A DNA stretch of 64,000 nucleotides from Flaccisagitta enflata (Eukaryota): the NCBI GenBank assembly GCA_965153355.1, contig OZ231126.1, positions 45,632,001 through 45,696,000 on the forward strand. The letters are read 5' to 3'. Of this stretch, positions 42,270-53,734 are shown piece by piece (within the stretch, counting starts at the first letter, position 1; each line of letters starts with the position of its first letter). The notes below the pieces were generated by a model that saw nothing but the letters and a program-made list of their open reading frames with translations, had not been told where the DNA came from and ran no database searches. Both the position numbers and the translations under genes were made by a program.

Positions 42270-42538
42270 CGCCGCTGCCGCTGCCGCCTTGGACGCTGCC
42301 ACTGCCTTCTTTGTCGCCTCTACCGCTGTCACTGCCGCCGCTACCGCTGTCACTGCCGCCGCGACCGCTGTCACTGCCGCCTCTACCGCTGTCACTGCCG
42401 CCTCTACCGCTGTCACGGCCGCCTTCACCGCTGTCACTGCCGCCTCTACCGCTGTCACTGCCGCCTCTACTGCTGTCACTGCCTCCGCTTCCGCTGTCAC
42501 TGCCGCCTCTACCGCTGTTACTGCCGCCGCTACCGCCT
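42270..42538. repeat. 21-bp GC-rich minisatellite (ACCGCTGTCACTGCCGCCTCT), about 12 units
   Basis: Direct inspection; the unit length is a multiple of 3, which gives stop-free frames on both strands. Confidence 0.9.
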
Positions 42539-42886: not shown

Positions 42887-43147
42887 AACAAGGCCATTAG
42901 ATCGACCTATGTCCCGTGCGTCGGCAGTTTCAAAAAAAGGTCAGGCAGACAGACGGATAATTTTTTTTTTTTCAAAAGCACTTTTTAAAAGGCTTTTTAC
43001 TCCTCCAAGTTTCTTCTCTGCCATTCAGAGCCATCAAAAATGCGATAAAAAGCCTTAAAAACGACTTTGTAACGGACTGACCGACCGACTGACTGACGGA
43101 CCGACCGACAAAGTGGCTTATAGAGTCGCGTAGCACGTGACTAAAAA
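42887..43147 (-). mobile_element. HINE family A variant downstream of RPLP1
   Basis: Reverse complement of the TTTTAGTCACGTGCTACGCGACTCTATAAG start and GGCCTTGTT end; GACC/GACT tract. Confidence 0.65.
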
Positions 43148-43550
43148 TCTTTGGCAAGTGATCGCTCCAGCTAAGCAAATTACTTATGATGAGTTCCAGC
43201 GATTGATACGCCATGAATCTTTTAATAACATAAATCTAAATAAAACACGAGCTTTCGCGAAGTACACATGATAAATCACTCAAAGGTAAATGTTAAAAAA
43301 AATGATAATTCATCTTTCCAAGAACAGTTACATCGTGCAATAACATGAGGACCTCGTCCTTAGTGTGGAGTAGTAATGTTGTCCAACTTTCATGTCTCAA
43401 GAAACAATTTTCACCAGTTGTTTTTTTTTTCTTTTTACATGATACGAGCAATAAAAGGCAAACAATTTGAAATGGTCGAACAATTTCTATCTGTTGTAGA
43501 ATGATTTTCATAAATTTTGCATCCGTTATAGTGGGTTTCCACTGTGATTT

Positions 43551-43693
43551 TTAGTCGTCAAATAAAGCGAAGCCACCACAACTACTATCAGAATCTTCAT
43601 CAGATTCTTCCTCCTGGACTTCTTTTACTTCTTGTTTGGCAGATGTTAAATCGGTTCCAGCATCCGCGCCGTTAACAGCGCCTCCGACATTAC
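43551..43693 (-). CDS. RPLP1: RPLP1-like coding exon 3 (hinge plus acidic tail ...[20 protein letters not shown])
   Basis: Acceptor aatttcAG|; phase matches exon 2; TAA at 43553-43551. Confidence 0.92.
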
Positions 43694-44714
43694 CTGAAAT
43701 TGGTCAAGAATTTATTGAATATCAGAGAAAATATTTTCATGTCTGAATCAATAAACATTAAACGATGATTAATTATTGTTGAGCAGGGGCCATACTTGCG
43801 GTCTTCAGAGCATTTGGGCAGGAGCAGTGACACAAAAGACCGAAAAAACATAAAGAATAGTAAAACGTGACCGAACAACCGACGCGATAGACGGACAAAG
43901 CGGAGTGTAGAGTCACGTAGCTCGCGACTGAAGATATATACATTGTTTATTAAGTGCGGGTGAGCAGGGGTGGCGAAAAAAAGGAAAGTGTGACCGACGG
44001 ACGGACGGACCGACCGACGGACAGATCGGGTTATAGAGTCGCGTGCACGCGACTAAAAAAACAAAGTTGAACCCCGCTCCTACAAACCCGTCGATTACAA
44101 ACTTTTGCCTGTTTTCAACTCCGCCCATGGTGAACTAGGATAAATTGTTTTCCAAAATTTGTTAAAGCGAGAGTCAAAGTAACGAAGAGCTTTCATGTTT
44201 TTGTCGGAACTTCTATCAGAATGCTGTATATTTCAACAATTGTTGCCGTTCTTATCATAATTTCTATACTATAGGCTATAGGCTCTTACCGGCGCTGACA
44301 ATCGAAGCCGCAGACCCAAGGGATCCGAGAAGTGCCCCAATGTCCGTGCCCTCGAGAGCTTTGGCAAAGAGGGTGGGCCAGTACGGCTCCACGCTTACAT
44401 TAGCAGCTTTTAGAATGGTCGTGATTTTGTCAGCCGTGATGGGAATACCTGAAATACACATGAACTAACTTTTCAAAAAAAGAAATGTACCCTTTTATTA
44501 CCCTCCAAATGATCGTGTGCGGTTGAACTGGCCTTAGCTGGGGCAGTACTTACGGACGGGCGGACAGACGGACTGAATGAAACTTCGTCTCCGCTGCAGA
44601 TTGCAGAACAAATGTAAATACAACTTGGAAATTTGTTTGAGTAAATTAACACTTACCGTCATCATGAAGGATTAAAGCCGCGTAGATGCAGGCTAACTCG
44701 TCGTTGGACGCCAT
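43551..44714 (-). CDS. RPLP1: 60S acidic ribosomal protein P1 (P1/P2 stalk family), 3 coding exons: join(44714..44657, 44448..44290, 43693..43551), 119 aa; divergent C-terminus
   Basis: Manual splicing gives 58+159+143=360 nt in frame with two phase-1 GT-AG introns (208 and 596 nt). Protein: [119 protein letters not shown]. The [14 protein letters not shown] and VEPYWPxLFAKAL motifs are diagnostic of eukaryotic P1, and the acidic tail ends in FxLFD. Confidence 0.95.
43780..44060 (-). mobile_element. Two family A HINE fragments in RPLP1 intron 2
   Basis: AGAGTCGCGTGCACGCGACTAAAA at about 44035-44058 and AGAGTCACGTAGCTCGCGACT at about 43909-43929, each with a GGAC/GACC tract. Confidence 0.7.
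44290..44448 (-). CDS. RPLP1: RPLP1-like coding exon 2 ([34 protein letters not shown]...VSA)
   Basis: Acceptor tatttcAG|, donor G|GTAAGA; overlaps ORF-track entry 44276..44461. Confidence 0.95.
44657..44714 (-). CDS. RPLP1: RPLP1-like coding exon 1 ([19 protein letters not shown] + G)
   Basis: ATG in gaaaATGG context at 44714; donor G|GTAAGT at 44656. Confidence 0.93.
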
Positions 44715-44870
44715 TTTCTCGTTGGTTTGAAAAAAAGGTGCTTTCAAATTTCGATTTTGGCGAAATATTTATAGAGAAATGAATTTGACAGTCTAGATGA
44801 CGAGAACTTTGCCACGAAGAGTGACTTAAAAAATAAAAGATTTCATGTATTGCGAAATGATGAAGAAACG

Positions 44871-44884
44871 AAAAGAAAGAGAAA
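44871..44884 (-). promoter_or_regulatory. Candidate TCT/5'-TOP pyrimidine initiator of the RPLP1-like gene
   Basis: Minus strand TTTCTCTTTCTTTT fits the YYC(+1)TTTYY TCT motif typical of ribosomal protein genes, about 165 nt upstream of the ATG. An upstream ATG in between weakens this call. Confidence 0.3.
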
Positions 44885-45347
44885 CGAAATTGCCTCGACA
44901 ATAGGGGTTGACTCGACGTCGAAAGCGATGATAGTTCCTCAGTGTTAGGCAAAAATAGAGGAAGTAACAAAACTGATGATTCTCTTTTTCAATTTTCTAT
45001 ATCAACCTGCACTTTCTGATCGCGGACTTGCGGCTCTATAAGACGTCGAGTCCGTCCGTCGGGCTGAAAAAACAGAAATACAAAATGATATTAAGACAAA
45101 AGGACGGAATGAGAGAAGGACAGAAAGGCAGAAAGGCAGAAGGACAGAATATGAGAGAGACAAAATCAGAGAATGATAAAGGGGTAGATGAACAGAAAGA
45201 CAGAATCACAGAGAGAGACAAAGATAGAGTAAAGATGGTATACTTGGATAGAAAAGCGGACGTTGTTGGTGTCCATGTGGAAGAAGAGACCATGCATCAT
45301 TTGTTGTCCTTTTCAAAGCCGCTTTTGGCGGCGACGGCAACGGCGAT

Positions 45348-45402
<55 letters not shown>

Positions 45403-52730: not shown

Positions 52731-53734
52731 AGAGGCAGAGAGGAAGAGGGACAGAGAAGCAGTGACTGCAAAAGAAGAAGTGAGAAATAGAAAGAAAGAA
52801 AGAAAGAAAGAAAAAAAAGAAAAAAAAAAGAGAGGCTGCAATAGAGGAGGCGTGTCTTAATAAATTCCACCTGTCACCACTGTGTCAGTCTTTCTGCAAC
52901 AGATTCCCATTGACTTCCATGATTTGGATTCTATTTCGCTCTGTTTTTGTCTGACCTGTGACTCCGAATTTGGACATGTGATTTTCCTCGTTCCCGCTGC
53001 ATTCAGTCATCATCGAGCCCAACTGTGTAACATTTTCTCCAAGACTTGCTCTGTTACGTTTGCCGCGATTTCGACGTTCCGTACCTGATTTTTATCGCGG
53101 GCGTTCACGTGACGGCAACGTGGTTGATTTCTTCTCGACTCCGCGGCAGATTTTTCGTCAGAGTTTTTGTCTGACTTGTCTTCTTTATATCAGGATGAAT
53201 TGAGTTTTCTTTCTCCTCCGGCTTTTTCCATTTCTTTCCTTTTCCTTTTTTTCTTTTTTTTTTTCTTTTTTGTTAATTCTTTTTTTCTTCTCTTTTTTCT
53301 TCTTTTGGCCTTCATGGATTTTATATCTTTTTCCTTCCCTCTTTCTTTCGCGTGTTTTAGCACTTTTTTTTGCAGGATTTTCTCTTTTTTTTCTGGCTTT
53401 TTCCTTTTTTTCGCGCATTTCGGTTTTGCTTTGGTGATCTTTCTTTTTTTTTAACTGCACGTTGTGACTTTTCTCAGAATTTCTATTCAGTTGTCAATTG
53501 GCTTTAGTTTGGGGGTCCGCTTTCACAGTAAAGCATCAATGACGCAGTTCAGGGCAGCAATGATTTTTTCGCAAGAAGCTCACATCACCATTGCACAATC
53601 TTTTCTACTCTCAAAGATAAGAACTCACAGCTAAACAGCATTTGTTTTGTTTTGTTTTGTTTTGTTTTGTTTTGTTTTGTTTTGTCTTGTCTTGTCTTGT
53701 CTTGTCTTGTCTTGTTTTGTTTCGTTTTGTTTTG

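Follow-up and report, generated by a model that had tools for sequence, protein, structure and literature searches.

Has a ribosomal stalk protein with a rewritten tail been kept by selection, or is its gene a duplicate on the way to decay? The question is raised by a minus-strand gene at 43551-44714 of a 64,000-nt stretch of DNA from Flaccisagitta enflata (contig OZ231126.1 of assembly GCA_965153355.1, positions 45,632,001 to 45,696,000), which is referred to below as the window. The gene encodes a protein of the P1 family. Few peptide motifs in eukaryotes are as conserved as the last residues of P1 and P2, and the first-pass annotation of the window, which had noted a departure from them, suggested a specialised paralogue. 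In the excerpted text of Ito et al. (2014, PMC4267659), the P1/P2 tail serves the ribosome as a handle for recruiting translational GTPases. The reading that we favour, and to which we give roughly an even chance, is that of a divergent P1 paralogue that is still under selection and that stands beside at least one highly expressed, presumably canonical P1 gene.

A P1 gene with a divergent hinge and tail

The gene comprises 3 exons separated by 2 GT-AG introns, each with a T-rich acceptor tract. Computed splicing of the exons (Table 1) yields 360 nt in frame, encoding a 119-aa P1 that ends with the stop codon TAA. The intact, intron-containing P1 of the first-pass annotation was recovered at exactly the coordinates that it had given, free of stops and frameshifts, and the hinge and tail that it had quoted are both found in the predicted spliced protein. 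The exon junctions are ambiguous by 3 nt, with 'gta' on both sides of each junction. Predicted exon 3 has a good acceptor and the correct phase. A processed pseudogene, which had been argued against from the start, is excluded by the presence of the 2 intact introns, and 2 wild DNA contigs (P0090 and P0091) span the same exon 2/intron borders.

Exon 2 matched the Pfam profile Ribosomal_60s (PF00428) with 42.4 bits (cutoff 28.1, E = 1.1e-10), and predicted exon 3 alone scored 20.6 bits, below the cutoff (E = 6.6e-4; profile positions 51-88 of 88). A search of 5.8 billion sequences with the exon 2 protein returned 89 relatives (best E = 1.6e-18), and the named matches were all P1, P1-like or carried the nonspecific NCBI label 'hypothetical protein'. 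Sequence matches in the Protein Data Bank (PDB) were P1 chains in 7 of 7 cases, not P2. Together with the P1-named relatives, these chains indicate that the N-terminal dimerisation domain is P1-type rather than P2-type. The first 20 residues of the window protein are identical to those of Spadella cephaloptera P1 (P0029) and of all 36 full-length relatives, Spadella included, that we define by this identity as arrow-worm-type. Over exon 2, identity to arrow-worm-type P1 amounts to 84-87%, and the Spadella protein is the sole named match in that tier. Judged by its best matches, the gene most likely comes from a chaetognath. By descent, to go by its sequence, it is a P1-family paralogue, filed apart from canonical P1 because its terminal motif deviates from [ML]GF[GS]LF[DGE].

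That motif closes the sequence in 75 of the 89 relatives, the other 14 being truncated or read-through open reading frames (ORFs) without a tail. Arrow-worm-type tails are canonical in 36 of 36 cases (...E(E)SD[ED]DMGF[SG]LFD). The window tail ends in CGGFALFDD and resembles none of the 75: Met has given way to a Ser/Cys/Gly stretch, Ala is found instead of Ser/Gly and a second terminal Asp is added. Both the acidic block and the F-x-L-F core have been retained. The tail was rightly described beforehand as an outlier to a near-invariant P-protein motif, since all 75 relative tails fit one pattern and this one does not. The same holds for the hinge, said not to be Ala/Pro-rich: the C-terminal half contains 5 Ala and Pro residues, compared with a mean of 11.2 in the 36 canonical arrow-worm-type sequences. 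It also contains 2 Lys (mean 3.8 in the same 36) and one Cys (0 of 36). The hinge is of low complexity, rich in Gly, Ala, Asp, Ser and Val, and the length changes in hinge and tail all preserve the frame. Extra Ser residues are linked with CK2-type phosphorylation; that such a stalk is redox- or phospho-tunable or toxin-evading, as the first-pass annotation suggested, is speculative.

A second P1 gene, transcription and selection

Four runs were aligned to positions 43000-45200 of the window at 80% likeness, so that reads of related genes also appear. The polyA RNA reads of the same organism (run X13; 12.2 million raw reads, about 6% of the run) covered exon 1 with about 450-570 reads at a depth of about 300x (144+175 and 54+69 in the bins). 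They differed from the window at 4 exon 1 sites (Table 1), all synonymous, and the window letter was found in 0-2 reads per site. Just upstream of the ATG, 388 of these reads diverge from the window (loose end 44718, agreement 1). The same 4 letters were present in 2-6 contigs of X1, a DNA run of the same organism that contains 70% of the sampled window words. The reads with other letters and a different 5' untranslated region (5'UTR), together with the DNA contigs, thus show that the same organism has another P1 gene. Besides the window copy, it carries one or possibly several P1 genes that are highly expressed and have a separate 5'UTR, and the proposal that the window gene is a paralogue is borne out. 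The tail of the other gene is presumably canonical, as in 36 of 36 relatives. At 44697, 6 X1 contigs with a summed depth of 706 carry the paralogue letter, compared with 137 for the window letter; these depths suggest that the organism may have several P1 exon-1-like loci or retrocopies, beyond two. No second P1 copy was found inside the 64-kb window by tblastn with two canonical P1s.

Transcripts of the window copy were found in X4 and X5, marine metatranscriptome runs from one study. One contig from each run (X4 record 15 and X5 record 21; Table 1) runs from the gene's own 5'UTR through exon 1 into exon 2, with intron 1 removed; the exon 2 difference listed for these contigs is 44399 A>G, which is synonymous (AAT to AAC). 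Of the 2 splice junctions that had been predicted, the one between exons 1 and 2 is therefore seen in RNA (one contig in each of 2 runs from a single study), and the one between exons 2 and 3 was not displayed in either contig. A canonical-type P1 contig in X5 (record 22) has a depth of 17.7, of the same order as the window copy, and, subject to the species mix of X5, the window-copy transcript is not rare where present. In the polyA sample, the level of the window copy does not exceed a few thousandths of that of the other P1. Silence in one polyA library of the same organism and spliced contigs in 2 metatranscriptomes are consistent with restricted expression. Small shares of window words were also found in the marine DNA metagenomes X3, X6, X7, X9 and X12 and in the RNA runs X8, X10 and X11, from which no conclusion was drawn.

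Selection on the N-terminal codons was assessed against a canonical cDNA, L001, the usable canonical arrow-worm-type sequence among at least 9 metagenome loci for exon 2. Over codons 1-73, the pairwise (not branch-specific) rates of nonsynonymous (dN) and synonymous (dS) substitution were 0.097 and 0.97, respectively, giving a dN/dS of 0.10. Exon 1, with 11.3 synonymous and 45.7 nonsynonymous sites, showed 0 nonsynonymous and 8 synonymous differences from L001, and 0 and 4, respectively, from the paralogue of the same organism. A ratio near 1 had been named in advance as a sign of a decaying duplicate; the N-terminal domain gave a value of about 0.1, and exon 3, which has no reliable nucleotide alignment, lies outside this estimate. 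Of the other metagenome loci, L009 is a partial match with an in-frame stop and L002-L008, with 44-61% identity over the N-terminal domain (tblastn), were left unused.

In a tree of the N-terminal 75 residues (60 rows kept; 35 dropped for having no tail, more than 125 aa or no Met start, or as duplicates), the window protein stands among the arrow-worm-type rows, inside no well-supported branch. Its end branch measures 0.15 changes per column, compared with 0-0.085 in the canonical arrow-worm-type rows, a length that fits relaxed selection. Overall, the sequence comparisons of the N-terminal domain point to selection that is purifying yet relaxed. The pairing of the window protein with P0018 (94/76) depends largely on one hinge residue, and therefore the tree does not fix the age of the duplication. 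An ancient duplication was considered, given that Pro22, Thr29, Asn36 and Glu52 of the window protein correspond to outgroup states; however, it is without tree support, and reversal could have produced the same states.

The locus also varies within and between samples. Over 44034-44548, a second X1 haplotype differs at 8 positions among the rows listed, all of them intronic and none in exon 2. Exon 2 is preserved in the wild contigs P0090 and P0091, with amino-acid identities of 100% and 98%, respectively. Both are metagenome contigs from ENA, with unspliced genomic ORFs that run through exon 2 and the intron borders; one has a Thr-to-Met change in EGTD and the other an intron indel that shifts the downstream frame. 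Thus, wild marine samples contain this locus, in more than one variant.

A retained paralogue, a decaying duplicate or another 3' exon

If the window gene is a divergent paralogue maintained by selection, a specialised function is plausible. Its N-terminal domain would be conserved enough for pairing with P2 and for seating on P0, transcription would be confined to some stages, tissues or conditions, and the product would join the stalk as one P1 copy, with a tail that may be altered in affinity or regulation toward eEF1A/eEF2-type factors rather than dead. A narrower version, in which a stage- or germline-restricted arrow-worm P1 with the rewritten tail alters how the ribosomes that carry it recruit eEF1A, eEF2 or other clients of the stalk, is unlikely.

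Several observations weigh against a retained paralogue, and a number of them would be expected of a decaying or dead duplicate, that is, a copy that has lost most of its expression, whose N-terminal domain stayed alike through short time or gene conversion and whose hinge and tail have drifted beyond use. Such a duplicate is possible, although we regard it as doubtful. The sampled portion of the polyA library held no reads at 99% likeness or more to the window copy, and depth over exons 2 and 3 was 0 except for 0.62 in one bin, in a sample where the canonical-type P1 is abundant. The end branch of the window protein is far longer than those of the canonical copies. The comparison of exon 1 with the paralogue rests on only 4 substitutions, and gene conversion could keep exon 1 alike. 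The Met before GF, which is present in every relative tail (Leu in 1 of 75), is missing, and the hinge is atypical. Among 5.8 billion sequences, the P1 proteins with this exon 2 variant include none that is spliced, only two unspliced genomic ORFs. The tail has no match to any orthologue: no relatives of exon 3 scored among 17 candidates from 5.8 billion proteins, 592 pattern matches in JGI metagenome contigs held none, and none reached E <= 0.001 among 1.84 billion representatives, although these negatives are weak because the query is only 46-50 aa long and of low complexity. Finally, expressed sequence tags (ESTs) of Spadella represent P1 by a single type of 117 aa, with 4 ESTs and no isoforms (Table 1 of PMC2020476). 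On the other side, the 360 nt are without stop or frameshift, both introns are intact and every length change in the hinge and tail preserved the frame. For codons 1-73, dN/dS is 0.10 at a dS near 1, and exon 1 has no nonsynonymous change. Spliced transcripts with the gene's own 5'UTR occur in 2 metatranscriptomes, at a depth within about 4-fold of the canonical P1 contig, and the F-x-L-F core and the acidic block are kept.

The use of predicted exon 3 is the other point of difficulty. Neither metatranscriptome contig has a listed exon 3 piece, and depth was therefore examined in 74-nt bins, which reproduce the listed pieces exactly and were hence used for arithmetic. X4 record 15 departs from the genome exactly at the exon 2 donor with 136 nt remaining. 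The X4 depth is 0 over 43666-43739, so that these last 136 nt lie off the start of exon 3, and the 2 bins that follow (2.38x74/9.26=19.0 and 0.63x74/9.26=5.0) account for about 24 nt at 43587-43610, on the acidic block only. These features, which also count against a retained paralogue, would be explained if the gene were active but used another 3' exon, outside the window or in a near-identical second locus, instead of or besides 43551-43693, the odd tail being a relic. We consider this decidedly improbable. The X5 bins of 2.25 and 1.09 correspond, at depth 5.03, to 33 and 16 nt at about 43633-43681, and 43633 is the expected end of the collinear 376-nt record 21; although no piece is listed there, the depths fit a record that enters exon 3 by the predicted splice, with some mismatch beside the junction. 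The acceptor of exon 3 is good and its phase right, and Logan contigs can be chimeric. Moreover, tblastn, a six-frame motif scan and a search with the 24-nt acidic block found no other stalk-tail-coding stretch in the 64-kb window: the scan returned 43560-43574 and, at 53375, a GFSLF that arises by chance in a frame rich in Phe and Leu, and the acidic block, with up to 3 mismatches allowed, matched once, in exon 3 itself. The 3' end of X4 record 15 possibly reflects a near-identical second locus or allele with another 3' exon, an alternative exon outside the window, or a chimeric contig. Mainly because this end is mostly unlike exon 3, our confidence in a divergent paralogue under selection is only moderate.

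It is very improbable that the window gene is the only P1 of the organism and that its tail reflects drift throughout the lineage. A single P1 copy within the window would agree with this, but a second highly expressed exon 1 with a different 5'UTR is found in both RNA and DNA, barring a contaminant species in X13 and X1. The tail is, furthermore, shared by none of the 36 arrow-worm-type relatives, all of which are canonical; a sole P1 gene with a tail shared by relatives is what the first-pass annotation had named as lineage-wide drift.

The alternatives differ in what they would mean. A P1 with a different handle that is selectively maintained would provide a ready-made test of which tail features matter, and a tangible example of ribosomes that differ at the stalk, in the GTPase-recruiting arm itself. 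A decaying copy would be an unremarkable by-product of gene duplication, which has been reported for the phylum.

Surroundings of the gene and comparison with known stalk proteins

The features of the gene, the 2 metatranscriptome contigs and the exon 1 sites are collected in Table 1.

Table 1. Features of the P1 gene in the window, with the transcript contigs and exon 1 differences aligned to it
Feature	Position	Strand	Details
5'UTR	44715..44811	-	minimum extent, genome-collinear; X4 record 15 and X5 record 21
Exon 1, coding part	44657..44714	-	ATG, 19 codons and 1 nt (first base of Gly20); donor G|gtaagt
Intron 1	44449..44656	-	208 nt, GT..AG; spliced out in X4 record 15 and X5 record 21
Exon 2	44290..44448	-	remainder of P1 N-terminal dimerisation domain and start of hinge; PF00428 and PDB P1 matches
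Intron 2	43694..44289	-	596 nt, GT..AG; contains high-copy interspersed repeat 43740-44109
Predicted exon 3	43551..43693	-	divergent hinge, acidic block, non-canonical tail; TAA at 43551-43553
Rewritten tail, 20 codons	43554..43613	-	unlike all 75 relative tails
X4 record 15	44654-44811; 44287-44445		453 nt, depth 9.26; 0 other letters in the first piece, 2 in the second
X5 record 21	44654-44804; 44287-44445		376 nt, depth 5.03; 1 other letter in the first piece, 2 in the second
A>G	44664		other letter in X13 reads, two read directions: 200/201 and 228/228
A>G	44667		other letter in X13 reads, two read directions: 201/201 and 228/228
A>G	44675		other letter in X13 reads, two read directions: 226/226 and 261/263
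C>T	44697		other letter in X13 reads, two read directions: 248/249 and 318/319

The DNA around the P1 gene appears to be rich in repeats and devoid of recognisable neighbouring genes. None of 20 long stop-to-stop ORFs tested in the window gave a Pfam match above the cutoff, and no Rfam match at the gathering score was found in the whole window. The repeat in intron 2 (43740-44109, core about 43990-44060) is a short interspersed sequence with a GACCGACCGACGGACG-type core that also occurs at 43074-43147 and has 22 further partial matches across the window. Its summed depth reaches millions in the X1 DNA, with many reads in the RNA runs, and it is probably a very abundant element of the genome, resembling a short interspersed nuclear element (SINE) or a miniature inverted-repeat transposable element (MITE). 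About 1 kb downstream of the gene, 42315-42536 hold 10.6 copies of a 21-nt tandem repeat (90% match), and a (CT)25 microsatellite lies upstream at 45350-45400.

Upstream of the ATG, the motif TATAAATA (44766-44773) lies within the 5'UTR covered by the metatranscriptome contigs, which reach 44811; being inside the transcribed region, it is not the promoter TATA box of that transcript. A T-rich tract ending in AG at 44826-44825 on the minus strand could be a trans-splice acceptor. Trans-splicing is common in chaetognaths and is reported for nearly half of the genes of Paraspadella gotoi in the excerpted text of the 2025 genome paper (PMC12460157).

Gene duplication has a debated history in chaetognaths. 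In the passages cited here, Barthelemy et al. (2007, PMC2020476) describe two or more mRNA types for many ribosomal proteins of Spadella, and in an extract of PMC2678813 the rRNA and the ribosomal protein genes of the phylum are each reported to fall into two classes. The paralogue evidence from the polymerase chain reaction (PCR), the claim of allopolyploidy and the promoter motifs of Barthelemy et al. are contested by Marletaz and Le Parco (2008, PMC2566580), who, in the portion of their text used here, identify the 5' motifs as trans-spliced leaders. Neither a P1 paralogue in chaetognaths nor an altered tail in any RPLP1 paralogue was found described in the literature searched, although the supplements of the chaetognath genome paper might include such a copy. 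The window gene resembles the chaetognath ribosomal protein paralogues, as described in the cited passages of PMC2020476, in that there is more than one gene per protein and one type is usually over-represented in expression. It differs from them in the nature of the change: those isoforms differ by 0-13 residues in length, whereas the window copy has its functional tail rewritten.

Canonical chaetognath P1 (UniRef A8E668, that is, P0029, 35 other arrow-worm-type sequences and the cDNA L001) is the closest comparison. The window protein shares with it a lineage-specific 14-residue segment, the length (119 aa, compared with 114-121 aa) and the order of N-terminal domain, hinge, acidic block and tail. 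It differs by seven replacements in exon 2 relative to the canonical consensus and by the loss of the tail ...ESDEDMGFSLFD, which is replaced in the window copy. The N-terminal dimerisation domain also matches human and other eukaryotic P1 in P1-P2 heterodimers (PDB 2lbf, 4beh and 4v6x; E = 1.4e-11 to 3.1e-11, residues 22-67 of the chain). The human P1 tail reads GFGLFD in the excerpt of PMC4267659, whereas in the window protein no Met-Gly precedes Phe and the terminus carries one Asp more.

The tail can further be compared with archaeal aP1 of P. horikoshii, a likeness that is limited to the tail, with no evidence that the feature shares descent. According to the same excerpt (PMC4267659), Ala directly precedes the strictly conserved Leu-Phe in aP1, as in the window tail, and a hydrophobic residue stands three positions before Leu-Phe (Leu103 in aP1, Phe in the window tail). 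The C-terminal carboxylate of aP1, which forms a salt bridge with aEF1A, lies one residue past Phe, whereas the window tail has two Asp past Phe. Replacing the core residues of silkworm P1/P2 (L110S or F111S) lowered eEF1A-dependent GTPase activity to one third. By analogy with these findings of Ito et al., the window tail may retain factor binding, probably at a strength altered by the absence of Met and the displaced C-terminus.

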